DNA of 64,000 nt from the NCBI GenBank assembly GCA_964658305.1, contig OZ210884.1, positions 7,874,001-7,938,000 of the forward strand. The letters are read 5' to 3'. The stretch is from Leptogorgia sarmentosa (Eukaryota). A program made the translations under genes and the position numbers. Positions 979-52,247 of this stretch are shown piece by piece. Positions within the stretch are counted from its first letter, which is position 1; each line of letters opens with the position of its first letter. The notes under the pieces are model-generated. The model did not search any database. It saw only the letters and a list, made by a program, of their open reading frames with translations, and was not told the DNA's origin.

Positions 979-1527
979 ACAAAGAAGGGACATGTAGATC
1001 AAGACTAGTTAATATGCAGAAAGAGGAAACCTGCTCTGAACAGCTGCAACAGTATTCAATGCCGGCACTGATCAAAAACAAATTTGAAGAACATAATGAC
1101 TCATTTCCGTCTCAAACACCCAATCAGGTTAACTCATTATCACTTTGATGATAGCGCTGACGGAGTCAAAGTACGGCCCTCGTTTGATTTTTTTGCCATA
1201 TATTATATAAAGCCAAAAAGGTATATCTCAGGTTCAATTTACCTCTAATTTCCGCTACGTTTTTGCAAAATCTGCCCAACGACGATTTAAAATGAACTGA
1301 ACAAAAAAACACATGGAAACAACAGGTTTGACACCACTTTTAACCTAGTTGATTGTTAGTTGACTTTAATTAACATTGCAGTTTTATACTTTAATCAATA
1401 TGACTAATATCTTATAATATAGCTACATATATTTCATGTATATATAGACTTCCAAAGGTGCAAAGGCTGGAAACATATTTGAAAAGAGGTTTGGAATAAA
1501 TTCATTCAGTCATATGGTTCATCCACC

Positions 1528-2451
1528 ATGAATGAAAGTGAGAAATTAGGAAATGTTTTAACGACGTGCTACATCATTAACAAGAAGACAGATCATGTCA
1601 CTGGATTTTCGTCCAAGAAGTATGAAATCAACCGAATATCCAATATCGCTTTTCTTGGTGTTCTAACGGTTTCAACGATTCTTCTCAATGCAGTTGCAAT
1701 AATAACCATCCAAAAAGCTCCCAAGTTGAAAGATAAGCTTTGTTTTTTCGTTATTCTCATCCAGTCAGTCGTTGATTTAGGAGTTGGATGCATCGTCATA
1801 CCGACAGTAAGCGTCTTCTTACTTCAACCATTTATAAACATTCACGACGTTTGTATTTCAATTCTCTTAGCAAGATCAACAGCAATACTCCCTGGTTTAT
1901 CGATAGTCACATTATCAGCTTTGACTATGGAGAGATATCTCAGTGTGCTTCATCCCTGTTTCCACCGTACACGTCTGAAAAAGAAAAGAATTGTCATTTT
2001 CGTCGTTGGGGCAGCTTTGGCGTTGTTGTCGTTAGTTGCTGCTTCAATTTTTGTTGAAGGTGAAATAATCAAGTACATTTCAATATTGATACTTGCAACA
2101 TTTTTAATTTTCGTCGTCTTCGCTTACACTCGAATATATCTCGTGATCCGAAAGATAACCCGAGTCCGTACAGATGACGAAGCAGGCGAAGGAAATCGAA
2201 AACATTTATCCCGTGAAAGAAAACATGCTCTAGCTTGCTTCATTGTCGTGGCTTTTTTCGTTTTGTTCCTAATTCCGTACATGCTGATTCCAATTTTTAA
2301 GCAATTCGAAAGAATGACTTCTAATACATATAACTGGTGGTCAGTGTCATTACTACTCTCAATCTCCTCCGTAAATTCGGCTATATTTTTTTGGAAGAAT
2401 ACCGTTTTGAGAAACGAAGCCAAGAAAGTCGTAAAAAACATGTTTGAATGA
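1528..2451 (+). CDS. Intronless rhodopsin-like (class A) GPCR, 307 aa
   Basis: Seven hydrophobic segments. TM1 LN, TM2 QSVVDL, TM3-end ERY motif, basic ICL3 (RERKHA), TM6 Pro (LIPY), TM7 NSAIFFW, then helix 8. Confidence 0.9.
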   Translation: MNESEKLGNVLTTCYIINKKTDHVTGFSSKKYEINRISNIAFLGVLTVSTILLNAVAIITIQKAPKLKDKLCFFVILIQSVVDLGVGCIVIPTVSVFLLQPFINIHDVCISILLARSTAILPGLSIVTLSALTMERYLSVLHPCFHRTRLKKKRIVIFVVGAALALLSLVAASIFVEGEIIKYISILILATFLIFVVFAYTRIYLVIRKITRVRTDDEAGEGNRKHLSRERKHALACFIVVAFFVLFLIPYMLIPIFKQFERMTSNTYNWWSVSLLLSISSVNSAIFFWKNTVLRNEAKKVVKNMFE

Positions 2452-4196: not shown

Positions 4197-4660
4197 ATCA
4201 AGACTATAGTTAATATGCAGAAAGAAGAAACGTGATCTGTACATCTGCAACAATGCCGGCACTGATCAAAAACAAATTTGAAGAACATAATGATTCAATT
4301 CCGGCTCAAATACCCAATCAGGTTAACTCACTTTGATGATAGCGCTGATGAAGTCAAAGTACGGCCCTCGTTTGATTTTTTTGCCATATATTATATTTAT
4401 ATTAAGCAAAAAAAAGTAAATTTCAGCTTCAATTTGCCGCTAATTTCTACTTAATTATTAACAAGTTTTCAAAGGTGCAAAGGCTGGAAACATATTTGAA
4501 AAGAAATTTGGAATAAATTCATGTAGTCATATGATCATCCCCGATGAATGAAAGTGAGAAATTAGGAAATGTTTTAACGACGTGCTACATCATTAACAAG
4601 AAAACAGATCATGTCACTGGATATTCGTCCAAGATCGAAGTATGAAATCAACCGAATATT
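4197..4660 (+). pseudogene. Truncated duplicate of the GPCR upstream region and 5' CDS
   Basis: Closely matches 998-1640. ATG at 4544 gives the same MNESEKLGNVLTTCYIINKKTDHVTG start, then a 2-nt insertion (ccaagaTCgaagt); similarity ends at ~4660. Confidence 0.85.
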
Positions 4661-7091: not shown

Positions 7092-8078
7092 GCTTTAGCC
7101 CAATGCGAGGGTAATAATTCCGGACGGCTATTTACACCCGGGTAAACGAGAGCATAGGGGAGACGAAACCTTTCATGTGTGTAGACCTCCATAGTTTGTA
7201 ATAACACAACTGACAGTATTAACATACTTATTAATATCCGATCATAAATATTAACAACATGCAACCAGTCAACATTAATTACCAAACGTGAATATAAATG
7301 TTTGTTGGATTTCTCGGTACAGTTCCCACCAGTTGTCAAAATTCAGGGAAGATTTTTCTTGTGGCGTACAGCAAATCTGTAAAATAGATACTTGTTCTGT
7401 TCATAAATTAAGTCAGTTTTGGACAAAACTGTGGATGGTGACACCAATTGTTCAAATCCGACACTGTTTGTTTTTTTGTGCACAGTAAAGGGTGTCCCAA
7501 AGAAGTACCCTCTATAGAATTTACTCTTTAAAGTAATCTTGACACTTCAGAAAACTTTACACATCGACTGTATTGCAATCATATTGCTTTACTTACAAGT
7601 ATCCAATTGTTAACGCCCAGAGGCAAATCGCGATAGCGGCACATATCAACAAGATTTTCCACCAACCATCTTGATTTATAAAAATTAGGAACAATTAGTT
7701 TGGAAAGTAAAAGGGATACAAAAATTAGGAGCTTTAATGTTCGTATAACCAGCGCAACATAAACGAAGCCTTCGTTTCAGCAATAAAAGCAAGATTTCAA
7801 ACCGGTAAATCTCGCTTTGGCGTACGCTCCAAAATCTTTTTATTTTCGGTTTAAACCATGAATTATAAATCCAACTAACTTTTTCAAATAGTCTCCCGAC
7901 TGAGAATTCTCAAAATTTGAAATTTATATTTTTGGAATTTGAGTTTTGAGCGCCAGATACCCGACATCAAGGGCGCCAATCCTGGGGGGGGGGGATGGGG
8001 GACGCGTCCCCCCACTTTTTGGAACGGATTGACGCCCTTGCCCGACATACAGAAAATCTTCGTCCTAATCAGACTCAC

Positions 8079-11000
8079 CGGTACCGTTTCGTATTTTAGT
8101 ACTGTTCTTGACAATACAACTTGTCCTTGAAGGAGACATTTCTGTGGCTATACCTTTATAATAATAGTCCAGAAACAGAAGTTTTAATGATGGGGGCATT
8201 GCTCCCCCAAGTCTCCCTCATCAACGGGCTTGCTTGCTTGGGAGAAATCGTGGGTGATCATCTTTGTCTAAACAAAGCCATCTTGCAAAAAATGGATGAT
8301 CACAGTACTTAATTTACAGGTACGTACTGCTTTTTTCTGTCGCTAGCTTGTTTACTGTGGTTGTAATAATGACAGGTGCAGTCCGTGTAAACATGCTGAC
8401 GGTACCTACAACATAAAATCATGCACTTGATCGCTATGTCGGTAATATCGGTAATGGTGTGTCACAGAAATACAACCACGTATCAAAAATACTCAAAGCA
8501 ATACAACGTCTTCGCGAGTCATTGCAGGACTTCTTTAAAAATCGAAATTTTACTGAGTTGTATTTTTCAGCTTTTCATATTGACCATGCTCGTTGTCTGC
8601 TCATAGCGAAGGTGAATTCGAACGAGTTCCCGTTCAAATAAATGAATAAGGAATATGATCACGCAGTTGCATTTTAGGGTATTTCGATGGGAAGAAGGAA
8701 AAGGCGAGGAATTGGATGCTGAACGAATGAAGACAAAAGTCATCTTATCTTCTCAGGGCGGGGGGTACCTTTAAATTATATAATTCCTAAATACATTCAG
8801 GTCGTCTAATTGGTTGATTATGGTCACGTGTTATCGAATAGAACGGAGAGTGCTTTCAGAGACTCCAACGCTTTTCACCCAGTGATCGCTGTTTATATAC
8901 ACCGCTTATTATTATAGTTTTTTTATAAACTGTTCTTTGAAAGCAATAGCATAATTTGGTATTATATTCGCCTCGTTGAATAGAACTTTCCATCTTCACC
9001 TCATGAAAATATTCTTACCATTGCACTCATAAGCATTCATTATTTGTATATCTGCTAGTAGAGAAATGTAAACAAAATGGCTGAAAGAGCGAAGCCGAAA
9101 TTCGACAAGTTTTCAACACTTAAAAAACAAAAATAATAAAATTCAAGAAGTTTAGTTGCAAATGTTAACTGTGCAGCTTTGAATCTGGAAAACCGGACTC
9201 GACGTCGTAAAATTCCTTCCTTGATTGACTTATTTGACTATAAGCGCATCTATATACGACTCGAGGTCGCAGAATAACTGTTAAATAAACAGGCTCTGAT
9301 TATAATAAGATGCAAGTTTAATCTGGCGTACATGTATGTATAGTTATTTTTTCTACTCCTCGTTACCAATTGATCAAACTCACCATTTTTTATGCTAGTA
9401 CTAGTGTTGTTGACAGTACAGAAATGTTAACTGTTCTTAACATTTCTGTCGTTATGCCTTTATAATATAACAGTTCAAAAACACACGTTTTAAAACGCTT
9501 ATCAAACTCGGCATAGCGGGGAAAACGCGGACATGCAGAATAGACTGGCCATCAAGCCCATAGCTCTTTCTCAATTTCTAACGAGGCACTGCAGAGAATT
9601 TAAGTGAAATTTTTGCGCTTTTTTCTTGCGAGTTTCCGATCGCGCAGCCATGAACACATGCAGTGCGCATTTCTTCTTGGACAGTGTTAAATTTGCCGCT
9701 TATTTTTTAAAATATTACAGTAGACATGACAACTGTTCAGTTTCATTAAACGACTTGACTAAAACGAAACAAAAAACGCGAAATCGCACAAGCATATATT
9801 CTTTAAAGAAAACCATTTGTCTGATACGTACTGCTGTTAACTGTCACAGATTGGTTTACGGAGGTTCCTGTGACGACAGGTGTAGTCCGTGTAAAAAGGC
9901 TCATGGTATCTACAACATAACATTCACATGATCGCTTAATATCCAGTTTGGAAGCCAGCCCAACATTTTCGGAAAAAATCCTAATCACACGTACTCAATT
10001 AACAGATACGTACTGCTTTTTACTATCACAGACTGGTTTACGGAGGTTCCTGTGACGACAGGTGTAGTCCGTGTAAAAAGGCTCATGGTACCTACAACAT
10101 AACATTCACATGATCGCTTAATATCCACTTGCGAAGCCAGCCCGACATTTTCGGAAAAATCCTAATCACACGTACTCAATTAACAGATACGTACTGCTTT
10201 TTACTATCACAGACTGGTTTACGGAGGTTCCTGTGATGACAGGTGTAGTCCGTGTAAAAAGGCTCATGGTACCTACAACATAACATTCACATGATCGCTT
10301 AATATCCACTTGCGAAGCCAGCCCGACATTTTCGGAAAAATCCTAATCACACGTACTCAATTAACAGATACGTACTGCTTTTTACTATCACAGACTGGTT
10401 TACGGAGGTTCCTGTGATGACAGGTGTAGTCCGTGTAAAAAGGCTCATGGTACCTACAACATAACATTCACATGATCGCTTAATATCCAGTTGCGAAGCC
10501 AGCCCGACATTTTCGGAAAAAATCCTAATCACACGTACTCAATTAACAGATACGTACTGCTTTTTACTATCACAGACTGGTTTACGGAGGTTCCTGTGAC
10601 GACAGGTGTAGTCCGTGTAAAAAGGCTCATGGTACCTACAACATAACATTCACATGATCGCTTAATATCCAGTTGCGAAGCCAGCCCGATATTTTTGGAA
10701 AAAATCCTAATCACACGTACTCAATTAACAGATACGTACTGCTTTTTACTATCACAGACTGGTTTACGGAGGTTCCTGTGACGACAGGTGTAGTCCGTGT
10801 AAAAAGGCTAATGGTACCTACAACATAACATTCACATGATCGCTTAATATCCAGTGGCGAAGCCAGCCCGACATTTTCGGAAAAAATCCTAATCACACTG
10901 ACGTACTCAATTAACAGATACACTGCTTTTTACTGTCACTGACTGGTTTGCGGAGGTTGTTATCACGACAAGTGTACTCCGTGTAAACATGCTGACGTTA

Positions 11001-14000
11001 CCTACAACGTAAACTCATACACTTGATCGCGCTTAACATCGGTAATGCTGTGTCAAGAAATCACAAGCACGTATTAGAATTAAAACAACACAACGTCACA
11101 TTCACGGCCGTACTTTCCTTTAATATATAAATGTCGAAATGTTAGTTGTATTTTTCAGGGACCGATTGTATATTCCCCGAGCCACGGCGGGAAGCGCCGT
11201 CCGGGCGTTAGCCCGGGGCGAGGGTAATAATTCCGCTTAGCGGAGTCCAAAGTTGCTCGATTTGGCCGCCATTTTGGGTCATCGTGCATCGTAGGTCATC
11301 ACTGATCTCTAAAATATAGCGGACTATCATGAATAGCCGAAGCTTTTTAGAGTTTTCAAGGAGCTTCTTAAAGCTTTGGAAAGGGGAAACAAAGACAAGA
11401 TCTGTGCGTAAGACTTAAAAAGCCCTCTTAGATGATATAAAACGCTGAGAAATGGGACGAAACGACTATGGATTGAAACACAGGATAAGTTTGTCAATAT
11501 ATTGTCGGCAGTGAACTTTTGTTTTGCGTATATTTACTATTTGTATGAAAGGTCGCCGGCCGTAGCCGCATTTAATCTATTAACCGTTCAATTCCAGAGT
11601 ATCAGTTTACGTTTTTAAATGCAAGTCTTCACAAAATATTTACAAATTTTACCATAAAACGAGCGAACATTGGCCGGAAACTCATATATCAAAGACTGAC
11701 TTGAATATTTAAATAAAAAGTTTCATGCAAATAAATGCAGTATTTCGCAATAAATTCAAGTTTATCATAGTCTTAATAACGTACGGATAACAAATGGTTC
11801 GCCAAATTAAAAAAATGCCAATAAAACCAAGATAAAAGCTGATATTTTGATTATTTGGTTAGTAAGGCGAGGGGTTGTTGCATATATGTATTTCTAGTAA
11901 CGTAGTTGAAGTTGAATATAGTCAGTGCGAAAATTAACTAATCAGAAATGCGTCTTTTAGAGTTAACTATGGTGGTATACCACTTAGCTAACTACGAAAC
12001 GGCTATAGTTAAAATGTAGTAAAACTGTTATTGTCGGCGAAATTAAACATGCTTAAAGTTTTTTAGAATTTCTCTATTCAGGAAAAAAACCATGCATCGG
12101 ATCGGATCGGATAGTATCGGAGTATACACTCGTTTTCATCATTAGCTAATTATCCATATCACTGGAAATAAAAGTTAACTAGAAATACATATATGCAACA
12201 ACCCCTCGCCTTACTAGCCAAATAATCAAAATATCAGCTTTTATCTTGGTTTTATTGGCATTTTTTTAATTTGGCGAACCATTTGTTATCCGTACGTTAT
12301 TAAGACTATGATAAACTTGAATTTATTGCGAAATACTGCATTTATTTGCATGAAACTTTTTATTTAAATATTCAAGTCAGTCTTTGATATATGAGTTTCC
12401 GGCCAATGTTCGCTCGTTTTATGGTAAAATTTGTAAATATTTTGTGAAGCCTTGCATTTAAAAACGTAAACTGATACTCTGGAATTGAACGGTTAATAGA
12501 TTAAATGCGGCTACGGCCGGCGACCTTTCATACAAATAGTAAATATACGCAAAACAAAAGTTCACTGCCGACAATATATTGACAAACTTATCCTGTGTTT
12601 CAATCCATAGTCGTTTCGTCCCATTTCTCAGCGTTTTATATCATCTATGAGGGCTTTTTAAGTCTTACGCACAGATCTTGTCTTTGTTTCCCCTTTCCAA
12701 AGCTTTAAGAAGCTCCTTGAAAACTCTAAAAAGCTTCGGCTATTCATGATAGTCCGCTATATTTTAGAGATCAGTAATGACCTACGATGCACGATGACCC
12801 AAAATGGCGGCCAAATCAGGCAAACTTTGGACTCCGCTAAGCGGAATTATTACCCTCGCCTCGGGCTAACGCCCGGACGGCGCTTCGCGCCGTGGCTCGG
12901 GGAATATACAGCACTTCAACAACTATATTTACTTCAACTCTATCGTAGGACCACAGGTTCAAACTGAATCGTGAAACTGGTACCGAAAGCCCATTCGCGG
13001 GTTCAATTTTGTTCCTATCCTGTGCAACCCCATGCTTGCTATCTCGAGTGGAAAGAGGAAAACGAAGAAATGGAAGCAAAATAATAACTCAGTATAGAAT
13101 GAAAGCCATTTATCTAGGGGCAATTATATTCGGAACTAACATCATATCTTCGTAAAAGGAAAAGACTACTGTACGTTAAGTATCATAATAATATAATAGA
13201 CATGCAAAGGCAGACGTAATTTATGCCTATAGTTGTAACTCATACCCCTCCTGATCTATTAATCAAACTCACCATTTCTTATCTTAGTGTTGTTGACAAT
13301 ACCAGCTGTTCTCAAAGACGAAGTCCCTGTAGCCCCGCGAAAACATTGTATAGCCAAAAAGAACAAACTTAATGCATTTGGATTCAGAAGGGAGGGGGCA
13401 TTATTTTATTCCCGGATGGGGGAGGGGAATCATGTATATATGATCATGCTTTAATTATCTAAACAAAGCATTTTCAAAAAATTGCTCCTAATCACAGGAC
13501 CGGCACCTAATTTCAAGATACGTACTGGTTTTAATATTTACTGTACTTGTGACTGACTGGTTTATTGAGGTTGTCATCTGGACAGGTGTATTTCGTGTAA
13601 GTATGCTGACGGTGCCTACAACATAAAATCATACAAAGAAAAATTGCATCGTGTAACAGCGCCTTTAGGGCAAAGGCAGGCTATTACCTTTAATCAAACT
13701 AATAATATTCAAACTCACCACTATTTATTTCAGTATTAGTGCAGCTGCTGACAATACCAGCTGTTCTCAAAGTCGAATTCCCGGCAGTAATGCCTTTATG
13801 GTAGTGAAAAAACATACGTTTTAGAGCTCTCGTTAAAACCATATACACTCGATGGAATGGAAACGCAAGGCGAACATATCACGCAAACAATTGAACGTAC
13901 GTTTCAATTTAGGCCGAAAAGTAAACATTCTCTATACAATAGTTAATTATTATTCGTGAAACGAAAAACCGCTGAATGTACACATTCTGTGAGAAAAAAA

Positions 14001-15870
14001 GACTTATCTACAGGGCCGGATTTATCACTTTTGGGCTTACAGGCCAAGTGCATGTGACGTAACATTTCAAGTAAACATATTATATCTATAAACCAGTATT
14101 ATAAATTATATTATGTGGAACATAACAAATTTTTGAGATTCATCCTATAAAATGAGAATGTTAGATGGAGCATTTTATGAACATAATATATAGATCCAGT
14201 GGGCCACAAAATAGAAAACGCATCTGAGAGACGAAGACCGAGTTACACTGCCAACCGTGCGGGCGAAATTTAATAGCGTGAGTTATATTTGCTGAAACCC
14301 TGTTCACATGAGCCCGGGACAACATGTTATCCCGGGACATTTTTCTGTCCCGGGGAAAAAATTGTCCCTACCCGTTATGTAAAATAGGTTCTGTTCACAT
14401 GACATTTCAACTTGTCCCGGATTGAAAACTGCCGCCTCTGAGGACAGGGACACTCGCCTTACCGAGCTATTTTTGCATTGACTAACATATTTTAAATTGC
14501 ATATTCCTTAGACTTTCAAATCGTTTCAGTTTAGCGCTAAAACTGTACTCAATAAATTTCGCAAATTTTTGAGTACTTGTCACGGGCAAGACAACTCATT
14601 GTGCCGGGGTAAAATGTTGTCCCGAGCTCATGTGAACGAACCCTTAGTATAATACCTGTCACAATGACTTTTACTATGAAAATATGTTGAGGATAAAATT
14701 TGTCGTCCGGAGTGTTCCTTCGAGCTGATCGTATTCTTGCTTTCAAATATCCATGATATTCCATGGTAGCATTGCGTACCGTCAGTTCGCACCAAGACGG
14801 CGTACAAACGGCCTCAAAGCCGGGTCGATCATCAAGGACGAAAGGAAAATTTGTGTTCACTCCATATACTGCACCCAGAGTCGCATTTTCAAGGAACCAA
14901 ATAACAACTTCGACTTCATCAGGTGGAGTACATTTATAGCTGGCTTTCACTGAAAAGCTCGATCCAATTGGGACGTATAGAGTGTAGTTGGACTTGCCGG
15001 TGATCATGCAAGAATCTAACGGAATGTAATGGACCGATTGCATAATAGAGAAGCAGAGAGAAATTTTAAAAAAATCGAACTAGTACAATTCATTACATTT
15101 ACAACAGCATTAAAAAGCATCCCAAAGTGAGTAAATCCACAAAATTTGGGTGCGAAATGTTGTAAAATATTGAAAATCGAAAATTCAAAGTAGTGAAATT
15201 TTCTATATAAAGTCAGTTCGTTCACGGAAACCATAGGCAGCCCAGTGATTTGGGGTTTTATTTATGTTAACTAAGGTTGAATAGGGCTATTTCATCATCC
15301 TTAGTTGTCTATATGCGTGCGCCGACAATACGGTCACCGCGTATGTAATTAATAGTTATAATAATTGACAATTATTATAACTATTAATTACATAATTATT
15401 ATAATAATTGTCAATTATTATAACTATTAATTACATACGCGAGTGACCGTATTGTCGGCGCACGCATATAGACAACTAAGGATGATGAAATAGTCCTATT
15501 CAACCTTAGTTAACATAAATAAAACCCCAAATCACTGGGCTGCCTATGCGGAAACTAGGTATAATATCACTCATGTCTTGCTCACGTGTCTGGTTTGTAT
15601 AATTGAATACAGAGCTCTCTCTTAAGGTGTGTTCCGGGTCGTGAACATTCGTGACTGGTTTTATACTCGTTCACATATCCATCAAAAGGAGGAAATCGCA
15701 CTGAGGGAAATTGCTCGTGTGGACGGCCTTTATACTAATGAATCAAAATTGATAATTTAAAGAAAATATTAAATTATTCTCTTACCAAGCATACCGTTGA
15801 TAACATGCAGCATCGTCAACAGCCCAACGCATCTCGCTAGAATACCACGGTTGATGAAAATCAACTTCAT
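8079..15870 (-). CDS. Secreted or cell-surface protein: signal peptide + atypical Ig V-like domain + mucin-like Thr/Ser-rich stalk (3' end uncertain)
   Basis: Exons (minus): 15870-15786 (MKLIFINRGILARCVGLLTMLHVINGML), 15015-14656 (Ig-like), 13793-13719, 13615-13526, 13326-13273, 11001-10924, 10817-10740, 10635-10558, 10453-10376, 10272-10195, 10091-10014, 9909-9832, 9457-9384 (74 nt, in-frame TAA), 8405-8328, 8153-8079. Internal exons are AG/GT bounded and, except the 74-nt one, phase 1-1 and open. Confidence 0.75.
9822..10923. repeat. Tandem repeat, 181-184-bp unit, 6 copies; each unit is a 78-nt exon plus intron on the minus strand
   Basis: Near-identical units. Minus strand reads ttatgttgtag|GTACCATGAGC...GTAAAAAGCA|gtacgt in five units; the last unit's exon starts ATACC. 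Confidence 0.95.
11167..12910. mobile_element. Foldback element with ~732-bp inverted arms and a 279-bp spacer
   Basis: 11167-11898 is the reverse complement of 12178-12910 with only a handful of mismatches. No ORF of note. The terminal ~65 bp recur at 6376-6413/7100-7121. Confidence 0.9.
14296..14645. mobile_element. MITE-like element (PIF/Harbinger-like termini)
   Basis: Inverted ends gttcacatgagcccgggacaac / gttgtcccgagctcatgtgaac. Confidence 0.6.
15232..15548. mobile_element. Palindromic MITE with 7-bp TSD, CA...TG termini (P-like)
   Basis: Near-perfect 317-bp hairpin CATAGGCAGCCCAGTG...CACTGGGCTGCCTATG. TSD CGGAAAC at 15225-15231 and 15549-15555. Confidence 0.88.
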
Positions 15871-21100: not shown

Positions 21101-24100
21101 TCACTTCTTCTGAAATCCTTTGATTCTTTCCTCCTTCTCGCCACGGCAAAGTGCACACTTGTACTTGGATTTGGATTTCGACAATTCCTTGTATGTTTTC
21201 TCGTCAATGCCTTCACAATCGGTGTGCGTCCAGCGGTCACACATATCACAACACACCATGGGTAGGTCTGTCTCATCATTGCGGTACACTTTGAGACAGA
21301 TTGGGCAGAAATTCCCATTGCGAAATAACCTTGAACACGAGATACACAAGGTTTGCAAGAACTGCGGCTCTTCACCTTCGCCGGGAATTGTGAACTCGTG
21401 TTTCCACTTGGCCGCGCTACCTTCGGGGCCTGGAACCCTCTTCAAACACGAAGCACACATTCCGCATTTATCACAGATCCATCTGCCAATGGGGATCTGG
21501 GTTAAACCAACACAGAAACTATGGTAACCTCTATCGCATTCGTCACAGAACAACATCTTATCTTCATCATGGGGATCGTTACACAGGGTACACCTCTTAC
21601 ACTCCATGCATTGCCAAGAGTAGGTCTTGATTATTTTGACCAACTGAGGACTCATATCCAGACAAGTTGGATGGCCACTGTTTTCACATTCTGAACAATG
21701 GATTAGACTCTCTGGCATACCTAAATCAAAATCGTATTGTAAAGAAGCACTCGTGGTTTGCAGGACTCCGAACTACTGAACTACAACAAACTTCAATACA
21801 TATGGCCAGCGTACGTAGGAAGTCCGAGATGTAGGAAGTATCGAATTTTGTTGAAATATCACCATTTGGGGTATTTGTGGCCAAAATTTTTCAATGATCT
21901 TTCAACTTGAAAGTTGTAATTGTAAATTTTGACCACCATTCGTTCAGGCATGCAAGAGGCATTTCTGTAAAAACGTTCTCTGAATCCTTACCTTTCTTGT
22001 TTCTTTCTGGGCCAGATAAACAAATACCACAGATAGGATCTTTTTTACCACTGGCCACATTCCTGTAATATGTTTTCTTCGGAGGAGGCTCATCGTAAAT
22101 ATCCTCACGTTTTCCCATGGTGACTAATGGTGCGGGTGACTCTGGTGGATTTTCGACAGCCTCTTCTAACATCTGAAAAGCTTCTGGGACTGTGATTACC
22201 TTAAACATAGCAGAAAAGGGTCGGTTGTTCAAAGCCTGTTTAGCTTAAACGGTAGATAAGTCCAAGGGCCGGTTGTGCGAAAGTCGGATAACTTTATCCA
22301 GCGGATAGTGATTTTTTCAACCGCTGTAAGAGTGCACAAAAAGCTAAAAAACTGCACCTATGGCGGGGCAATTAATAAAAGGAAAGTTTAACTTTAAAAT
22401 ATCGAAGTTTAATCTGAATTGGATGGATCAACGGGTTATTTTTTCATCAACGGGCGACTTTCACCTTTCGTACAACCGGCTCCAGTCAATGTCAAGCTAA
22501 TCTATGTATTCATTGAACGATCAAAATAAAATCTTTTAATCAGAAAAGAACTTACGCATATAACTACATATTCATTGTTTAAAATTTATGTTCAGTTATT
22601 CACAAGACAAATGGGAGTGCAATTCAAATTTGACTTATCCACCGTTTAAGCTAAACGGGCTACCAACAACCGGCCCCTGGGTTAGATTTGAATTCCACTA
22701 CAACTATCGCTACCTTTCACTAACCTACTATACGCATGTTATTGGTTAACAGGGCCGGTTGTACGAAAGGTGAATAGCGCTATCCATCGGATAGCGACTT
22801 TTTCAAGCTTTCTAAACCAAACCGTTGATCCATCCAATTCAGATTAAACTTTGATATTTTAAAGTTGAACTTTCCTTTTATTAATTGCCAGGCCCATATG
22901 TGCAGTTTTATAGCTTTTTGTGTATTTTTACGGCGGCTGAAAAATCACTATCCGATGGATAAGGTTATCCGAAAACTTTAAAGCGTTCGGTTGGTTCATG
23001 TGTCTTGTATGGTATAGCGTTGGTGGAAGTCAAATCTGAACCTCTCTAGTAAGCGGGTGGGTGTGCGCTGAACATCCTTAGTTGCAGCTGAAGGCTCACA
23101 CAGAACTTTGAAGGACGCAGCTCAACACGAACGATTGAATGCTTTTATAAGGCAGTCACTTTATGACTCGTGTCTGATCACGGAGTACAACTACGGTGGA
23201 AGGCTTGCAATGTTCGCTAGCATGACAGCATGCTGCCAGGAATTTTTTTTTACTTTAAAGGAAATTTTGGAGAAACACAAACATCGTGGAATGGATATAT
23301 CGACGCTCAAGTTTGCTGCTTTTCTTAAAGATAAATAATCTCGATGTTTAACCATATGCAACAGAATTTTAATGTAAAAAAACAAAGTAAATCTGTAATT
23401 TTGCAGGAAATGTTTTTGAGCAGTACTGCAGTTAAGCCTGCGGCCAGGAAGAAAATATTTTACATATTACGGTGGAAGGGTCAATTACGAGACAATAAAC
23501 AAAATCCTTGTTTGAAAGGGTTGTTGAATGACTGTTAAATTTAGTCAGGATGCTCTCTCTTTGCTGGTGTTTACCTCTGGTTGGGGAGGTGGTGGAAAGA
23601 AAACCACCGAGTTCAAAGGAAACTGATTCAGGTCATTTGAAGTATAAGGATAGTAATAATCTTGGTACTGGCCCAGAAGTAGTGCAACAGGGTATTTACT
23701 TGGCACTGTCATATGTGGTGGCATTTTTATATTTTTTCGTGCAGGAATATGAATGAGCTGGGTCTGCATGTCATAGTACGAAGCACGTTCCTCTTTCCGT
23801 TGATGTAGTAGCATGGAGTTGTATTCTGAGGAGTCCTTCATGGCTTTCTTCAGAGCATTTGTCTGTCTTATCGACATCATCTTTCTGTTCTTGTTTTCCT
23901 TGATTGCTTGTTGTCTTTCTTTTTTGTGCAAGATAGTCACATATCTTTGGTAGAATGAAGGGAAATGATCAATCATCACTTGCCTCACATCGTCAGTGTT
24001 CAAAGCCAATATCTGCAAGTGTGGTGATTGAATATGTATTAAATTTAGTTAACAAGCAGCAAAGTTTCTACGCACTACATAAATAATATAAATTAATTTG

Positions 24101-25087
24101 ATGTTTCGGGCACTTTGTTGACAAAGTGTCCGATATTTGGGATGGATTGATGCTCATTTGATGGGAAGAATGTGCACATGTCATTGTGGGCAAACTATAT
24201 GAGACCAATCAGGCTGTTGCATGACTGACTGCCTTCACAATTTCAGTTTAAAATCCAAAGATGAGAATGTTTGAGAAATCGCACCCTAGTACAAGGCTTC
24301 AAAAACGAACAAGAACTATCGGGGATCGTAAATCTCACGAGACTGAGCTTTTTGTTTTCGGTCATGCTTGTCTACTGTACAGAGTGCTCATGCTCTATCT
24401 ACTGTACAGAGTTCGTCCTGAGTTCCATGCCAGTTGTATTCAACATATTATAAAATAATGACAAAGTCTTGATCTAATTCGCAAGAATCGACATGCATGA
24501 CAGATTGTGGAGGATTTTAATATGATATTAAATTACCTTTCTTTAAATATTTCACGTGGCCATGACGAGCGCTGATGCATCAAAGAGACCGCAGACCTAT
24601 ACTTCAGCGGTATTAATACGCCAATACTTCATGTTGTTAGCGCGTTTGGCACATTCTTCCGAAAATTTTCAAGTAAAATGATAATACTTTGGGACTTTTT
24701 AAAAATAGTCCTGAAATAATCACTTTCAAATGAAGCATGCGGGCGGAGGACCAGAAACTAATGATCAACTTGTAGGGGCTTAGTCTCGGTGGCAAACCAA
24801 GTCATTTTGTAATTTTTCTGTACCTTCTTGTCGTCATGAAATTCAGCTTCTGTAATGGTTCCTTGTTCGAACAGAAACTTCCTCTCCTCTTTGGATACTT
24901 CATGATGTTGCATCTGAGGATATTTCTGCAACAGACTCTTTTCTTTCAAAAATTCACAAACCTGTCTTTCTAATTGATAGTACTCTCCGGCATTCTCTTG
25001 TGGCCACTGATAGTCAAAAGGCAGTGTCTCCAATGTTGTTGTCTCGTTCTTTGATAGCTTCTCTGCCGTTGCCGCCGTGGTGGACAT
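21101..25087 (-). CDS. PHF10: PHD finger protein 10 (BAF45a/SAYP-like), 4 exons, ~509 aa
   Basis: Exons 25087-24824, 24012-23575, 22199-21992, 21720-21101 join in frame. SAY-domain motifs ([33 protein letters not shown]) and a double PHD (CGIC...[12 protein letters not shown]...WQCMECKRC...CDECDRGYH). Confidence 0.92.
22221..22680. mobile_element. MITE with a nested related MITE (22265-22485); another partial copy at 22750-22970
   Basis: TIRs ggttgttcaaagcctgtttagcttaaacgg / ccgtttaagctaaacgggctaccaacaacc. The inner element runs ccggttgtgcgaaag...ctttcgtacaaccgg. Confidence 0.7.
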
Positions 25088-25734
25088 GGCGAATTTAGCC
25101 AATGAAGTCAAGATTATTCGCTGTTTTGTTCTACAAATTTGCGAAAGTTGTCCGCCATGCTGCTTTTTTTCAAAGGAAGCCAACGGAGGGCAATGATTGG
25201 TTAAATTTTAGACACTGAGCTGTAGTTACTCATATATAACTGGATTAAGAACAATTCAAAGAATTTTCCGAGCAACACAGCGTTTAAAAACTTTTACTCT
25301 CTACCTAAATTATACAACAAGCCGATGAAGGGCAAATCTTGTTGCAATGTTAGGTATTGAGTAGATGAAGGGCTTTTTGCTGCTTTTGTTGATGTTGTTC
25401 AATTAATAAATTTCCTATTTGCACTTTCTTCTCTTACAAGAAATATTGGCTAGCAGTGATGGCAAAGAACGCTTAATAACAATGATTTGATCTCAATGAA
25501 TCGAAAGAACGAACGTCATGCGCGGGATAAGGCAGATTACTGAAGAAATGAAGAAATTTGTAATACCATAATCAAAATAATCAATAAATTTCATTTTCAG
25601 ATATTTTTTGTTAATAGTGGAAGCACGGATCCGATATCTCCCATAAGGCAATTCGGTGATAATATTCATTTTTCTTTGACTCGTGGCGGGTAGAAAGCGA
25701 AGTTTCCATCAACTTAATTCCATATTTTTGCGAA
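25088..25734. promoter_or_regulatory. Bidirectional promoter and 5' UTR region shared by PHF10 and SNRNP70
   Basis: Divergent ATGs are only 648 bp apart. CCAAT-type motif (gattgg) at ~25195. Confidence 0.6.
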
Positions 25735-28700
25735 ATGACGGCGTTTTTACCATCAAATCTTCTGGCATTATTTGCTCCGAGGAATCCTATACCTTATCGA
25801 CCACCTCTGGACAAACTTGGTCATCAGAAGAAGCCATGGCCGTATACCGGAGTCTCCAATCATTTGGACATGTTTGAGGTAGACAAATTGTGCCTTTGTA
25901 TGTGTATAAGTGTATAGTTCTATGTATTGTTTTGTTCTCGCATCAATAATATGTATGTTGTCGTAATGCTCATGTTTTGCTTGATATTATTTACTCAGAA
26001 AACATAAATTTTGAAAGTTTAATAGCTATTTTCTTTCTCATTATATTTTTGTTTTCTGCACCCCCTTCCCCCCCCCGTCCTCCACCTTCCTTCCCTCACT
26101 CTCCCCCCCCCCCCCCCCCATCGTCCACCCCCATCATCCAACCTTACCCCCTTCTTCCCCCCCTCTCCCCCCTTTACCCTGGAATTAACACTTGAATTTG
26201 TATTGTTTTCAGGATCCAAACGACACCCCCGCTCCAACAAGGGCAGAAAATAGAGTGGAAAAAACTGAACGAAAGGCAAGTTGTGGTATTTCAGAAACTG
26301 CCAAGTGGTCCTTTCTCAATTTCCATTAAAAGAAGAGGCAGCACTGATTTTTAATGTTTTACAAAATTTAGAAAAAGGAAAGAATTGAGAAGAACAAGTT
26401 TCAGCTGGAACAAGCAGTGGAAGAATGTAAGCATACATGTATATTATATAAAGGCATTTAGATTCAGCTGGAATGGATCATTCCTGAAAAGATCTATGTA
26501 TTCTCTCTCCACACGGACGAGGGGAAGGAGAAAAAATTGTTTCTGATAATAGTTACATCTGAAGCTAATTAGGGCAAAAATTAGGATTTCTAACGGGGGT
26601 AGAGGGGATAACATCCTATCCATCGCACATAATCCACACTGCATGTGTTCACTCTGTGCCAAATGGATGGATATTCCATGCATTAGTCTAAAATAATAAA
26701 GTCTTTGAAACGTTCTCTGATCGTAAATTTTATTTAAGACACGAGCTTTCGTCTGCCAGCCTGCAGTCTTCGACTTACTTGTCTTATACACCTATACATT
26801 TTTAATAAGTCTGAAATAACTTTTCAATTTAATGACTTGTAGGGGATCCGTATTCAGATCCTAATGCAGCAACTGATGCCTTCAAAACTTTGTTCATTGG
26901 ACGGCTGGTAAGTATGCTGTACACATGTGTAATATCCTGTAGCGCAAGGGGGAAATTTGAAGGAAAATATTGAAAACAAATTAAAACCAAAGTAACTGCA
27001 CCAGTGTGAAGGAATTACAACTACTAAAAATATGTCACAACACATCATCTACGACGACTACGTCTAAAAGACTAAGCCTACGACTAAAAATATGTCACAA
27101 CACATCATCTACGACAACTACGTCTAAAAGACTAAGCCTACGACTAAAAATTTGTCACAACACATCATCTACGACGACTACGTCTAAAAGACTAAGCCTA
27201 CGACTAAAAATATGTCACAACACATCATCTACGACAACTACGTCTAAAAGACTAAGCCTACGACTAAAAATATGTCACAACACATCATCTACGACGACTA
27301 CGTCTAAAAGACTAAGCCTACGACTAAAAATATGTCACAACACATCATGTACGACAACTACGTCTAAAAGACTAAGCCTACGACTAAAAATATGTCACAA
27401 CACATCATCTACGACGACTACGTCTAAAAGACTAAGCCTACGACTAAAAATATGTCACAACACATCATCTACGACAACTACGTCTAAAAGACTAAGCCTA
27501 CGACTAAAAATATGTCACAACACATCATCTACGACGACTACGTCTAAAAGACTAAGCCTACGACTAAAAATATGTCACAACACATCATCTACGACAACTA
27601 CGTCTAAAAGACTATAAGCCTACGACTAAAAATATGTCACAACACATCATCTACGACGACTACGTCTAAAAGACTAAGCCTACGACTAAAAATATGTCAC
27701 AACACATCATCTACACTACGTCTAAAACACTAAGCCTACGACTAAAAATATGTCACAACACATCATCTACGACGACTACGTCTAAAAGACTAAGCCTACG
27801 ACTAAAAATATGTCACAACACATCATCTACGACGACTACGTCTAAAAGACTAAGCCTACGACTAAAAATATGTCACAACACATCATCTACGACAACTACG
27901 TCTAAAAGACTAAGCCTACGACTAAAAATATGTCACAACACATCATCTACGACGACTACGTCTAAAAGACTAAGCCTACGACTAAAAATATGTCACAACA
28001 CATCATGTACGACAACTACGTCTAAAAGACTAAGCCTACGACTAAAAATATGTCACAACACATCATCTACGACGACTACGTCTAAAAGACTAAGCCTACG
28101 ACTAAAAATATGTCACAACACATCATCTACACTACGTCTAAAACACTAAGCCTACGACTAAAAATATGTCACAACACATCATCTACGACGACTACGTCTA
28201 AAAGACTAAGCCTACGACTAAAAATATGTCACAACACATCATCTACGACGACTACGTCTAAAAGACTAAGCCTACGACTAAAAATATGTCACAACACATC
28301 ATCTACGACAACTACGTCTAAAAGACTAAGCCTACGACTAAAAATATGTCACAACACATCATCTACGACGACTACGTCTAAAAGACTAAGCCTACGACTA
28401 AAAATATGTCACAACACATCATCTACGACGACTACGTCTAAAAGAATAAGCCTACGACTAAAAATATGTCACAACACATCATCTACGACGACTACGTCTA
28501 AAAGACTAAGCCTACGACTAAAAATATGTCACAACACATCATCTACGACGACTACGTCTAAAAGACTAAGCCTACGACTAAAAATATGTCACAACACATC
28601 ATGTACGACAACTACGTCTAAAAGACTAAGCCTACGACTAAAAATATGTCACAACACATCATCTACGACAACTACGTCTAAAAGACTAAGCCTACGACTA

Positions 28701-31700
28701 AAAATATGTCACAACACATCATCTACGACGACTACGTCTAAAAGACTAAGCCTACGACTAAAAATATGTCACAACACATCATCTACACTACGTCTAAAAC
28801 ACTAAGCCTACGACTAAAAATATGTCACAACACATCATCTACGACGACTACGTCTAAAAGACTAAGCCTACGACTAAAAATATGTCACAACACATCATCT
28901 ACGACGACTACGTCTAAAAGACTAAGCCTACGACTAAAAATTTGTCACAACACATCATCTACGACGACTACGTCTAATTAAGACTAAGTCTACGACTAAA
29001 AATTTGTCACAACACATCATCTACGACGACTACGTCTAAAAGACTAAGCCTACGACTAAAAATATGTCACAACACATCATCTACGACAACTACGTCTAAA
29101 AGACTAAGCCTACGACTAAAAATATGTCACAACACATCATCTACGACAACTACGTCTAAAAGACTAAGCCTACGACTAAAAATATGTCACAACACATCAT
29201 CTACGACAACTACGTCTAAAAGACTAAGCCTACGACTAAAAATATGTCACAACACATCATCTACACTACGTCTAAAAGACTAAACCTACGACTAAAAATA
29301 TGTCACAACACATCATCTACGACAACTACGTCTAAAAGACTAAGCCTACGACTAAAAATATGTCACAACACATCATCTACGACAACTACGTCTAAAAGAC
29401 TAAGCCTACGACTAAAAATATGTCACAACACATCATCTACGACAACTACGTCTAAAACACTAAGCCTACGACTAAAAATATGTCACAACACATCATCTAC
29501 GACAACTACGTCTAAAAGACTAAGCCTACGACTAAAAATATGTCACAACACATCATCTACAACGACTACGTCTAAAAGACTAAGCCTACGACTAAAAATA
29601 TGTCACAACACATCATCTACGACGACTACGTCTAAAAGACTAAGCCTACGACTAAAAATATGTCACAACACATCATCTACGACAACTACGTCTAAAAGAC
29701 TAAGCCTACGACTAAAAATATGTCACAACACATCATCTACGACAACTACGTCTAAAAGACTAAGCCTACGACTAAAAATATGTCACAACACATCATCTAC
29801 GACAACTACGTCTAAAAGACTAAGCCTACGACTAAAAATATGTCACAACACATCATCTACGACAACTACGTCTAAAAGACTAAGCCTACGACTAAAAATA
29901 TGTCACAACACATCATCTACGACGACTACGTCTAATTAAGACTAAGTCTACGACTAAAAATTTGTCACAACACATCATCTACGACGACTACGTCTAAAAG
30001 ACTAAGCCTACGACTAAAAATATGTCACAACACATCATCTACGACGACTACGTCTAAAAGACTAAGCCTACGACTAAAAATATGTCACAACACATCATCT
30101 ACGACGACTACGTCTAAAAGACTAAGCCTACGACTAAAAATATGTCACAACACATCATCTACGACAACTACGTCTAAAAGACTAACCCTACGACTAAAAA
30201 TATGTCACAACACATCATCTACGACGACTACGTCTAAAAGACTAAGCCTACGACTAAAAATATGTCACAACACATCATCTACGACGACTACGTCTAAAAG
30301 ACTAAGCCTACGACTAAAAATATGTCACAACACATCATCTACGACGACTACGTCTAAAAGACTAAGTCTACGACTAAAAATTTGTCACAACACATCATCT
30401 ACGACGACTACGTCTAAAAGACTAAGCCTACGACTAAAAATATGTCACAACACATCATCTACGACGACTACGTCTAAAAGACTAAGCCTACGACTAAAAA
30501 TATGTCACAACACATCATCTACGACGACTACGTCTAAAAGACTAAGCCTACGACTAAAAATATGTCACAACACATCATCTACGACAACTACGTCTAAAAG
30601 ACTAACCCTACGACTAAAAATATGTCACAACACATCATCTACGACGACTACGTCTAAAAGACTAAGCCTACGACTAAAAATATGTCACAACACATCATCT
30701 ACGACGACTACGTCTAAAAGACTAAGCCTACGACTAAAAATATGTCACAACACATCATCTACTACAACTACGTCTAAAACACTAAGCCTACGACTAAAAA
30801 TATGTCACAACACATCATCTACGACAACTACGTCTAAAAGACTAAGCCTACGACTAAAAATATGTCACAACACATCATCTACGACAACTACGTCTAAAAG
30901 ACTAAGTCTACGACTAAAAATTTGTCACAACACATCATCTACGACGACTACGTCTAAAAGACTAAGCCTACGACTAAAAATATGTCACAACACATCATCT
31001 ACGACGACTACGTCTAAAAGACTAAGCCTACGACTAAAAATATGTCACAACACATCATCTACGACGACTACGTCTAAAAGACTAAGCCTACGACTAAAAA
31101 TATGTCACAACACATCATGTACGACAACTACGTCTAAAAGACTAAGCCTACGACTAAAAATATGTCACAACACATCATCTACGACAACTACGTCTAAAAG
31201 ACTAAGCCTACGACTAAAAATATGTCACAACACATCATCTACGACGACTACGTCTAAAAGACTAAGCCTACGACTAAAAATATGTCACAACACATCATCT
31301 ACACTACGTCTAAAACACTAAGCCTACGACTAAAAATATGTCACAACACATCATCTACGACGACTACGTCTAAAAGACTAAGCCTACGACTAAAAATATG
31401 TCACAACACATCATCTACGACGACTACGTCTAAAAGACTAAGCCTACGACTAAAAATTTGTCACAACACATCATCTACGACGACTACGTCTAATTAAGAC
31501 TAAGTCTACGACTAAAAATTTGTCACAACACATCATCTACGACGACTACGTCTAAAAGACTAAGCCTACGACTAAAAATATGTCACAACACATCATCTAC
31601 GACAACTACGTCTAAAAGACTAAGCCTACGACTAAAAATATGTCACAACACATCATCTACGACAACTACGTCTAAAAGACTAAGCCTACGACTAAAAATA

Positions 31701-34700
31701 TGTCACAACACATCATCTACGACAACTACGTCTAAAAGACTAAGCCTACGACTAAAAATATGTCACAACACATCATCTACACTACGTCTAAAAGACTAAA
31801 CCTACGACTAAAAATATGTCACAACACATCATCTACGACAACTACGTCTAAAAGACTAAGCCTACGACTAAAAATATGTCACAACACATCATCTACGACA
31901 ACTACGTCTAAAAGACTAAGCCTACGACTAAAAATATGTCACAACACATCATCTACGACAACTACGTCTAAAACACTAAGCCTACGACTAAAAATATGTC
32001 ACAACACATCATCTACGACAACTACGTCTAAAAGACTAAGCCTACGACTAAAAATATGTCACAACACATCATCTACGACAACTACGTCTAAAAGACTAAG
32101 CCTACGACTAAAAATATGTCACAACACATCATCTACACTACGTCTAAAAGACTAAACCTACGACTAAAAATATGTCACAACACATCATCTACGACAACTA
32201 CGTCTAAAAGACTAAGCCTACGACTAAAAATATGTCACAACACATCATCTACGACAACTACGTCTAAAAGACTAAGCCTACGACTAAAAATATGTCACAA
32301 CACATCATCTACGACAACTACGTCTAAAAGACTAAGCCTACGACTAAAAATATGTCACAACACATCATCTACGACAACTACGTCTAAAAGACTAAGCCTA
32401 CGACTAAAAATATGTCACAACACATCATCTACGACAACTACGTCTAAAAGACTAAGCCTACGACTAAAAATATGTCACAACACATCATCTACGACAACTA
32501 CGTCTAAAAGACTAAGCCTACGACTAAAAATATGTCACAACACATCATCTACGACGACTACGTCTAAAAGACTAAGCCTACGACTAAAAATATGTCACAA
32601 CACATCATCTACGACAACTACGTCTAAAAGACTAAGCCTACGACTAAAAATATGTCACAACACATCATCTACGACAACTACGTCTAAAAGACTAAGCCTA
32701 CGACTAAAAATATGTCACAACACATCATCTACGACAACTACGTCTAAAAGACTAAGCCTACGACTAAAAATATGTCACAACACATCATCTACGACAACTA
32801 CGTCTAAAAGACTAAGCCTACGACTAAAAATATGTCACAACACATCATCTACGACGACTACGTCTAATTAAGACTAAGTCTACGACTAAAAATTTGTCAC
32901 AACACATCATCTACGACGACTACGTCTAAAAGACTAAGCCTACGACTAAAAATATGTCACAACACATCATCTACGACGACTACGTCTAAAAGACTAAGCC
33001 TACGACTAAAAATATGTCACAACACATCATCTACGACGACTACGTCTAAAAGACTAAGCCTACGACTAAAAATATGTCACAACACATCATCTACGACAAC
33101 TACGTCTAAAAGACTAACCCTACGACTAAAAATATGTCACAACACATCATCTACGACGACTACGTCTAAAAGACTAAGCCTACGACTAAAAATATGTCAC
33201 AACACATCATCTACGACGACTACGTCTAAAAGACTAAGCCTACGACTAAAAATATGTCACAACACATCATCTACGACGACTACGTCTAAAAGACTAAGTC
33301 TACGACTAAAAATTTGTCACAACACATCATCTACGACGACTACGTCTAAAAGACTAAGCCTACGACTAAAAATATGTCACAACACATCATCTACGACGAC
33401 TACGTCTAAAAGACTAAGCCTACGACTAAAAATATGTCACAACACATCATCTACGACGACTACGTCTAAAAGACTAAGCCTACGACTAAAAATATGTCAC
33501 AACACATCATCTACGACAACTACGTCTAAAAGACTAACCCTACGACTAAAAATATGTCACAACACATCATCTACGACGACTACGTCTAAAAGACTAAGCC
33601 TACGACTAAAAATATGTCACAACACATCATCTACGACGACTACGTCTAAAAGACTAAGCCTACGACTAAAAATATGTCACAACACATCATCTACTACAAC
33701 TACGTCTAAAACACTAAGCCTACGACTAAAAATATGTCACAACACATCATCTACGACAACTACGTCTAAAAGACTAAGCCTACGACTAAAAATATGTCAC
33801 AACACATCATCTACGACAACTACGTCTAAAAGACTAAGTCTACGACTAAAAATTTGTCACAACACATCATCTACGACGACTACGTCTAAAAGACTAAGCC
33901 TACGACTAAAAATATGTCACAACACATCATCTACGACAACTACGTCTAAAAGACTAAGCCTACGACTAAAAATATGTCACAACACATCATCTACGACGAC
34001 TACGTCTAAAAGACTAAGCCTACGACTAAAAATATGTCACAACACATCATCTACGACGACTACGTCTAAAAGACTAAGCCTACGACTAAAAATATGTCAC
34101 AACACATCATCTACGACAACTACGTCTAAAAGACTAAGCCTACGACTAAAAATATGTCACAACACATCATCTACGACAACTACGTCTAAAAGACTAAGCC
34201 TACGACTAAAAATATGTCACAACACATCATCTACGACAACTACGTCTAAAAGACTAAGCCTACGACTAAAAATATGTCACAACACATCATCTACGACGAC
34301 TACGTCTAAAAGACTAAGCGTACGACTAAAAATATGTCACAACACATCATCTACGACGACTACGTCTAAAAGACTAAGCCTACGACTAAAAATATGTCAC
34401 AACACATCATCTACGACGACTACGTCTAAAAGACTAAGCCTACGACTAAAAATATGTCACAACACATCATCTACGACGACTACGTCTAAAAGACTAAGCC
34501 TACGACTAAAAATATGTCACAACACATCATCTACGACGACTACGTCTAAAAGACTAAGCGTACGACTAAAAATATGTCACAACACATCATCTACGACGAC
34601 TACGTCTAAAAGACTAAGCCTACCACTGAAAATATCTCACAACACATCATCTACGACAACTACGTCTAAAACACTAAGCCTACGACTAAAAATATGTCAC

Positions 34701-43700: not shown

Positions 43701-43874
43701 CGTTACAAACGTGAACGTGATGAAGATGACGAGCGCAATGGAGAGAGAAAGGATGATGAAATAAAGAAGATAAAGACAGAGGATGATCGTTATGGCGGCG
43801 GTTATGACACTTATGAAGGAAATATGAGGATGGAGAATCAGGTGATTAAACAGGAATCTGATGGATATTATTGA
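25735..43874 (+). CDS. SNRNP70: U1 snRNP 70 kDa protein (U1-70K), 10 coding exons
   Basis: Exons 25735-25878, 26213-26275 (GC donor), 26372-26426, 26843-26907, 37634-37696, 38429-38510, 41474-41575, 42179-42257, 42639-43052, 43196-43874 join in frame. [16 protein letters not shown] start; RRM with [53 protein letters not shown]-rich tail. Confidence 0.96.
27021..37225. repeat. 60-bp satellite, ~170 copies, inside SNRNP70 intron 4
   Basis: Unit ACGACTAAAAATATGTCACAACACATCATCTACGACRACTACGTCTAAAAGACTAAGCCT, with occasional 56-, 59-, 61- and 62-bp variants. Confidence 0.99.
38620..38960. mobile_element. Inverted pair of a dispersed repeat with Penelope-like end motifs
   Basis: 38620-38725 is inversely similar to 38850-38960. 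Related pieces at ~25322, 39470, 44315, 53005 and 61125. Motif CYGAYGAAG...GAAA(C) is followed by ttgtatcgt. Confidence 0.5.
41860..42165. repeat. Non-autonomous repeat with a terminal hairpin; related to 18340-18625
   Basis: Hairpin aacaattattggatgagg...ttcaataattgtt, followed by a ccaatca motif and an AT-rich tail. Confidence 0.5.
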
Positions 43875-52107: not shown

Positions 52108-52228
52108 GATACTTTTGTTATATCTCACTACTGCGTCGTTGCTGCAAGAAGCGCAAGGAATGAATGTATTCGAAAGCGCAAATACAAAGCTTTTCTAAGC
52201 GTATAAAGTTTGTTATTTCGCGTGGCAA

Positions 52229-52247
52229 TGTGGCCGTGCGCGATTGG
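52229..52247 (-). promoter_or_regulatory. ER stress response element (ERSE)
   Basis: Minus strand reads CCAAT-CGCGCACGG-CCACA (CCAAT-N9-CCAC), ~120 bp upstream of the calumenin-1 ATG. Confidence 0.6.

Follow-up and report, generated by a model that had tools for sequence, protein, structure and literature searches.

Among the closest described systems for a surface protein with one V-set immunoglobulin (Ig) domain on a stalk are the TIM family and the Alr proteins of the cnidarian Hydractinia. The TIM proteins 1, 3 and 4 share a layout of signal peptide, one IgV domain, Ser/Thr-rich stalk, one transmembrane (TM) segment and tail, and their IgV domain has three disulfides, the canonical B-F bond and two around the CC' loop (PMC8484753, PMC6269442). 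The Alr proteins occur in tens to hundreds of alleles, show allele-specific homophilic binding and control fusion (PMC9546547). Huene et al. (2022) knew no other V-set domain outside bilaterians, noting that many go undetected (PMC9546547); anthozoans also tell self from non-self, and the Alr genes named in that connection are hydrozoan (PMC7563517). The locus described here, at 15870-7343 on the minus strand of a 64,000-nucleotide (nt) window of Leptogorgia sarmentosa DNA (contig OZ210884.1), is likely a gene of an octocoral-type animal with low expression. It is predicted to encode a single-pass membrane glycoprotein in which a V-set-type domain stands on a stalk of duplicated small exons, and we put the probability that this product is a tethered cell-surface recognition or adhesion molecule at roughly 70%.

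Gene model and evidence of splicing

All candidate exon boundaries on the minus strand of the window were enumerated, and the core of the first-pass annotation, a signal-peptide exon and a 360-nt Ig-like exon followed by 13 small exons of two types, was recovered (Table 1). The exon order is signal, Ig, A1, B1, A2, B2, B3-B8, A3, B9, A4, TM and last exon. The type A exons (75, 54, 74 and 75 nt) all have a gtgagt donor, and the type B exons (90 nt, then 8 x 78 nt) have a ttgtag acceptor in nine of nine cases and a gtacgt donor in eight, with gtgtat in B2, as the annotation had described. It had also taken all but one of the small exons to be open and of phase 1-1; 12 of the 13 are indeed open and symmetric, with lengths divisible by three, and the exception is A3, where nt 66-68 of the exon form an in-frame stop. 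This exon is likely a dead copy and left out in splicing. In exon 1 there is a second phase-1 donor at 15795, and the donor at 15786 is favoured because the whole length of exon 1 can be aligned with the N-terminal part of the Paramuricea clavata protein P0012 (Z 6.2, 0/2000 shuffles).

The annotation had ended at A4 and left a membrane anchor to be sought further downstream. The 8 kb beyond A4 hold ten hydrophobic stretches, and a single one of them forms an exon that is bounded by AG...GTRAG, entered in phase 1, open and hydrophobic (17-residue hydropathy 2.84). The next strong acceptor (tattttacag, at 7376) leads in phase 2 into 10 codons and a stop, so that the earlier coordinates stop short of the predicted gene end at 7343. 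With A3 skipped, the predicted product is a type I protein of 489 amino acids (aa), made up of a 28-aa signal, a 120-aa domain, a 305-aa stalk, the TM segment and a tail; with A3 included it has 425 aa and no TM segment. The predicted cytoplasmic tail consists of seven residues, is basic and has no Tyr motif.

Table 1. Positions in the window of the predicted exons and of a high-copy element within the locus
Feature	Position	Strand	Remarks
Exon 1	15786..15870	-	85 nt; ATG at 15870; predicted signal peptide; phase-1 donor gtaaga; hydropathy 1.67
Exon 2, V-set-type Ig domain (predicted)	14656..15015	-	360 nt; open; phase 1-1; RNA-like contig stops at its donor
Stalk exon A1	13719..13793	-	75 nt
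Stalk exon B1	13526..13615	-	90 nt; in frame, 12 nt above other B exons
Stalk exon A2	13273..13326	-	54 nt
Stalk exon B2	10924..11001	-	78 nt; weak donor gtgtat, 3/9 matches to U1 consensus
Stalk exons B3-B8	9832..10817	-	one 78-nt exon per 182-bp tandem unit
B3-B8 singly	10817-10740, 10635-10558, 10453-10376, 10272-10195, 10091-10014, 9909-9832	-	
Stalk exon A3	9384..9457	-	74 nt; frameshifted; stop before TM exon if included
Stalk exon B9	8328..8405	-	78 nt
Stalk exon A4	8079..8153	-	75 nt
Predicted TM exon	7597..7669	-	73 nt; phase 1-2; donor gtaagt; 409 nt past A4
Predicted last coding exon	7343..7376	-	helix end and short basic tail; stop 7345-7343; transcript 3' end not fixed
High-copy element	11167..12910	.	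~735-bp terminal inverted repeats; within A2-B2 intron, outside coding model

Words of the Ig exon are present at 25-44% in all four runs of study P3, none of which is recorded as RNA. Two of these runs, X7 and X11, were compared with two DNA runs and behave as RNA with some genomic background: over the single-copy bin 1-550 their depth is 18x and 6x that of DNA, and in 13 high-copy bins it is 0.10x. One contig of X7, record 32, is 503 nt long at a depth of 3 and agrees with 14655-14830 with no differences; the match ends on the Ig donor, and the remaining 327 letters do not run on into the intron, unlike the genomic relatives P0001-P0004, which do. Comparison of the 327 letters with cumulative exon lengths of 75, 165, 219, 297 and 375 did not identify the joined exons. 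X7 and X11 have no cover in bin 9351-9900 (A3, B8) and little at 7151-7700 and 10451-11000, gaps that can be attributed to repeats and the 0.1x background and are not used as evidence.

Domain, stalk and relatives

When folded with a 10-row alignment (P0003, near-identical to P0004, was omitted, as were P0007 and P0008), the Ig exon gives a model with a pLDDT of 76.8 and strands A, A', B, C, C', D, E, F and G; a C'' strand is uncertain, with residue 59 as its single bridge residue where the pLDDT is 61-65. This model superposes on a T-cell receptor (TCR) V domain with Z 12.7 and an rmsd of 2.7 over 111 aligned residues, and Foldseek returns more than 500 matches at E<=1e-3, the best being CRIg, CAR D1 and TCR V (TM-scores 0.67-0.72). 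Folded as a single sequence the exon does poorly (pLDDT 54.6, no Foldseek match at E<=1e-3, best Z 5.4). On the predicted structure, the 360-nt exon is a V-set-type Ig domain with a V-frame beta-sandwich and V-type length, which bears out the first half of the earlier label "IgV-mucin". Sequence searches miss it: neither the exon nor any of 10 octocoral-type relatives has an Ig match in Pfam, and a PDB sequence search yields nothing at E<0.05.

The core of the domain is unusual. Canonical positions were assigned by spacing and by alignment with a fish protein (P0007), using the eight-residue list of Huene et al. (G16, C23, W41, R75, L89, D98, Y102, C104). Four are kept (Gly17, Trp39, Arg63, Leu77) and four are replaced in all covering rows, with D98 becoming Tyr, Y102 becoming Leu and both cysteines becoming Ala (Ala24 and Ala92, 68 residues being between them). 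Failing this list does not rule out a V-set domain, as the Alr V domains fail it as well. The only cysteines of the exon are Cys2, 28, 70 and 75, none of them in C-C' or F, and it is possible that in the modelled fold the invariant Cys28 pairs with Cys2, on the next strand.

The 305-aa stalk was correctly described as rich in Thr, Ser and Val with N-glycosylation sequons (Ser+Thr 39%, Val+Ile 21%, 13 N-sequons). The other half of the label needs narrowing, since with 3% Pro the stalk is mucin-like and not a classical Pro/Thr/Ser (PTS) mucin. Exons B3-B8 form one 182-bp tandem array of exon plus intron with 95% identity, and they group as one clade (support 100/99); therefore the 13 small exons amount to about eight lineages, seven of them intact. 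The homologies that had been named between flanking introns are real, with local scores of Z 13.0 for 8154-8327 against 13327-13525 and Z 33.4 for 8406-8580 against 11002-11160 (0/500 shuffles each). The introns after A2 and A3 are homologous too (Z 11.4), and a control intron pair gave Z 2.3 with 14/500 shuffles. Type A and type B exons show no detectable relationship in the shuffle test (Z 0.4 and 1.3). Thus duplication of symmetric exons holds as the origin of the stalk, and so does duplication within each type, but the number of lineages is smaller than the number of exons and the two types cannot be traced to each other. Because the flanking introns are homologous and B3-B8 are one array, the stalk would have grown by duplication of an A-B exon pair as a block with its introns, followed by the recent 182-bp tandem run of B.

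Random 78-nt stretches of the window are open in 27% of cases, and open with Ser+Thr >=32% in 2.2% (n=7346). Under neutrality, the chance that seven of eight lineages stay exon-like (AG, GT, frame and openness) lies between 1.5e-7 and 5.6e-4 across six settings of a rough star-tree simulation, for which the homologous introns supplied the rates of substitution and indels. When B2, B4, B8 and B9 are compared, the exons are gap-free, the flanking introns carry 2-18 gap letters, and the proportions of nonsynonymous and synonymous differences are about equal (pN ~ pS). This pattern suggests that selection holds the frame and splice sites of the stalk with little concern for exact residues, as would be expected of a spacer.

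A HMMER search over 1.84 billion representatives returned six matches, namely P0001 (88%), P0005 and P0006 (52%), P0009 (33%), fish P0007, and P0008, a kinase/Sel1 protein whose match is a chance one and which was rejected as a relative. Among the close relatives, the only ones with a name come from the octocoral P. clavata; they are hypothetical proteins at ~52% identity, and they make an octocoral the likely source of the gene. Two of these, P0006 (CAB4039857.1) and P0012 (CAB4039856.1), join the signal exon and the Ig exon in public models; P0012, on a 5959-bp contig, reads past the Ig donor into the intron, and both are likely truncated versions of the same kind of gene. The annotation had proposed a search for paralogues; the 64-kb window has no second copy of the Ig, A, B or TM exon. 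In metagenome contigs a pattern search gave 61 matches, of which none was confirmed, and the B-exon pattern gave none.

Several transposon-like sequences sit in the introns. The element at 11167..12910 has a depth of 288-1128 in DNA runs, where ~6 is typical. A near-perfect hairpin element occupies 15232-15548 in intron 1, and in an X6 contig 15231 is followed by 15560, the junction that a copy lacking the insertion should have. A small inverted-repeat element (14302-14637) lies 18 nt past the Ig donor, and P0001 departs from the window at that point, perhaps because its source is not the same in this insertion. Elsewhere in the window, a 60-bp satellite at 27023-37224 comprises 170 copies that are 96% identical; one frame on the plus strand stays open over as many as 787 codons (a Thr/Ser run) but is broken by frameshifts, and the satellite is likely non-coding. 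Positions 1-533 are single-copy by DNA depth, yet reach a depth of 106-142 in X7 and X11, which points to a well-expressed transcript running off the window start. A single-exon rhodopsin-type G protein-coupled receptor gene lies at 1483-2451 (+), its 5' part and upstream DNA being duplicated with stops at 4207-4634, and related copies occur in the RNA-like runs. The other neighbours are a PHD-finger/DPF gene (21101-25207, -), presumably PHF10-like, a gene for an Arg/Glu-rich repeat protein (42583-43874, +), two FAM124 genes (46647-47546, +; 50067-54972, -) and an EF-hand gene (59524-60594, -) that we take to be calumenin-like. No other Ig gene was seen among the window's neighbouring genes, and an exact look-up of four of the neighbour proteins returned no match.

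Candidate function and alternatives

As a tethered recognition or adhesion molecule, the protein would be delivered to the surface by its signal peptide, and the ~300 Ser/Thr-rich residues with their 13 N-sequons would form a glycosylated, extended stalk that raises the lone V domain above mucus and glycocalyx. There the domain's C-C'-C''/FG face, proposed because relatives differ most in it, would make contact with a protein partner, which most likely sits on a facing cell. Since the basic tail has no Tyr motif, the protein would serve as a tether or work through a co-receptor, with no signalling of its own. Glycosylation, surface location, partner and binding face are what we infer from the model. 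Several observations weigh against such a function. The splicing signal is limited to the Ig donor, at a depth of only ~3 in one contig of one run, with the stalk, TM and tail junctions being predicted, and the runs concerned, which have no RNA label, contain ~0.1x genomic background. A3 is broken, three transposon-like insertions sit in introns, and the splice sites of the B exons are middling (pyrimidine fraction 0.47-0.59). Database relatives run through the Ig donor into the intron, and weak searches among 87 and 7994 candidates gave no relative with a stalk or TM segment.

That the V-domain gene is an allorecognition determinant would be a special case of tethered recognition, and is unlikely. 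Between P0001 and the window, 14 residues out of 119 are changed, for which a minimum of 15 nt changes is needed; nine of the 14 are in the BC, C'C'' and FG loops, which make up 40 of the 119 sites (P 0.013), and P0011 and P0012 have nine of their 15 differences in the same loops (P 0.025), where loop limits were fixed only after the alignment had been seen and synonymous changes could not be counted. In DNA contigs of X6, which carries another organism's label, the Ig-exon piece of 438 nt has 22 differences plus 4 gaps, and two pieces near the window start, of 708 and 714 nt, have 1 difference each; other pieces, from a comparison of 8 per run of thousands, show 16 in 372 (exon 1), 12 in 613 (TM region), 6 in 528, and 22 in 545 in a multi-copy stretch. 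Alr genes are likewise single-pass and polymorphic with an unusual V-set domain, and three of them have tails <14 aa (PMC9546547). On the other hand, P0002-P0004 differ from the window at only 2-3 of ~119 residues, the X4 piece that covers the Ig exon has 6 differences in 626 nt, and loop enrichment is equally strong among distant relatives (26/54 differences), for which loose loop constraint suffices. P0001 may be a paralogue or come from a sister or other species, and the variants at 88% and 97-98% identity could be alleles or paralogues. The single copy in the 64-kb window also differs from the 41-member Alr cluster (PMC9546547).

A main product that is secreted or lipid-anchored is improbable. 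It would retain A3, whose frameshift would cut the protein off after 425 aa with a mildly hydrophobic end, and it would act as a soluble decoy or as part of the mucus. A3 does keep its acceptor and gtgagt donor, with an ATTAAA at 9322 just downstream of it; Alr genes, moreover, yield TM-less splice forms (PMC9546547). However, B9, A4 and the TM exon downstream remain open and in phase, and the one-base loss in A3 could stem from misassembly or be private to this individual. A stop codon far upstream of splice junctions usually triggers mRNA decay, and the A3 stop lies upstream of four. It is very improbable that the locus is decaying or only partly used, with a real Ig exon and many small exons that are unspliced, duplicated intron debris. 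The A3 frameshift, the weak B2 donor, the transposon insertions, the similar pN and pS among B exons and the low depth would fit such decay, but seven of eight diverged lineages retain AG, GT, frame and openness (P<=5.6e-4), exon lengths change in multiples of three except in A3, and the Ig domain is ~52% conserved in another genus. Tethered recognition or adhesion is therefore preferred. Its boldest version, which is unlikely, would make the protein a receptor by which octocorals tell self from non-self, separate from Hydractinia Alr. It would stand for a second V-set family outside bilaterians, one that lost the core disulfide in its own way (Ala/Ala); the binding face would be diversified between colonies, the stalk would reach as far as the copy number and the skipping of the two exon types allow, and A3 would be a switch to a shed form.

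Comparison with known systems

The annotation had placed the locus in the architecture of the TIM family, and the gene model does predict the same layout. That assignment falls on the domain itself: the coral domain has neither the canonical B-F disulfide nor the cysteine pairs of the CC' loop, the tail has ~7 residues, the stalk is Pro-poor, and no sequence match exists. Nor does the Ig exon have a WFND-like motif, the motif of the metal-dependent phosphatidylserine site in the FG-CC' cleft of TIM proteins. TIM-1 and TIM-3 have a cytoplasmic Tyr phosphorylation motif that the coral protein lacks, and TIM-4 is likewise without one (PMC8484753, PMC6269442). By these defining features the coral protein is not a TIM, and the family provides a layout analogy only.

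The stalk finds its parallels in chicken Muc13 (PMC1552070) and in Schistosoma SmPoMuc (PMC2576457), where each Ser/Thr-rich repeat has an exon to itself and the introns were duplicated along with the exons; that splicing or copy number makes the length vary has been proposed for the former and shown for the latter. The coral stalk differs in that it bears an Ig domain, combines exons of two unrelated types in an A-B pattern, is N-sequon-rich and Pro-poor, and has no SEA domain; its repeat number is blurred in the runs, whose contigs collapse the B array. The tunable stalk length that the annotation had inferred would be a candidate property of the coral protein. The aggregation factors of Amphimedon are likewise extracellular, built of modular exons that are all of phase 1, polymorphic and proposed to act in self/non-self recognition, but they are far larger and consist of Calx-beta, VWA and Wreath domains with no Ig (PMC5400394). 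The sole non-cnidarian match to the Ig exon is the fish protein P0007 of Triplophysa (E 2.8e-7, 33% over residues 35-101), whose V domains are free of cysteine and share the same Trp, Arg, LT-x-N and F-strand Ala. This protein, which we take to be CD2/SLAM-like, has 13 tandem V-set stretches and no repeat stalk, and the likeness is maybe convergent.

No description of a coral V-set/stalk family was found in titles or abstract starts, most subscription papers being outside the scope of the search and octocoral proteome or annotation tables in supplements possibly listing relatives; the mention of immunoglobulin in one candidate paper (PMC11959691) is a Gene Ontology term. The earlier view of the molecule as undescribed holds to that extent. 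Novelty is tempered by the Atlas, where similarity reaches 0.96 to unnamed, mainly cnidarian clusters, some members of which are V-set, and 0.94 to V-set clusters, and by the exon-per-repeat stalks already in print. What the locus adds is a V-set family in octocorals that Pfam does not see, with a full receptor-like model where public gene models stop at the Ig exon, and its V exon offers a concrete candidate for genotyping in graft tests.

The protein shares several features with Hydractinia Alr. Both are cnidarian and single-pass, both have a V-set fold (predicted, in the coral) that Pfam misses and from which both core cysteines are lost, domain and TM segment each lie on one exon, and variants exist (PMC9546547). 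The coral domain keeps the core Trp that only 2 of 29 Alr domains have and lacks the salt-bridge Asp/Glu present in 26 of 29 (PMC9546547). Only A/B exons were found between its Ig and TM exons, giving a repeat stalk in place of an I-set/Fn3-like spacer, its tail has no ITAM/ITIM, it is single-copy in the window, and four near variants of the Ig exon were seen. None of the six HMMER matches is an Alr protein, and Alr members share just ~24% identity among themselves (PMC9546547). By its defining features the coral protein is not an Alr either. Taken together, these comparisons indicate a real gene of an undescribed, octocoral-type family of the immunoglobulin superfamily, in which a known design is realised with a new combination of parts.

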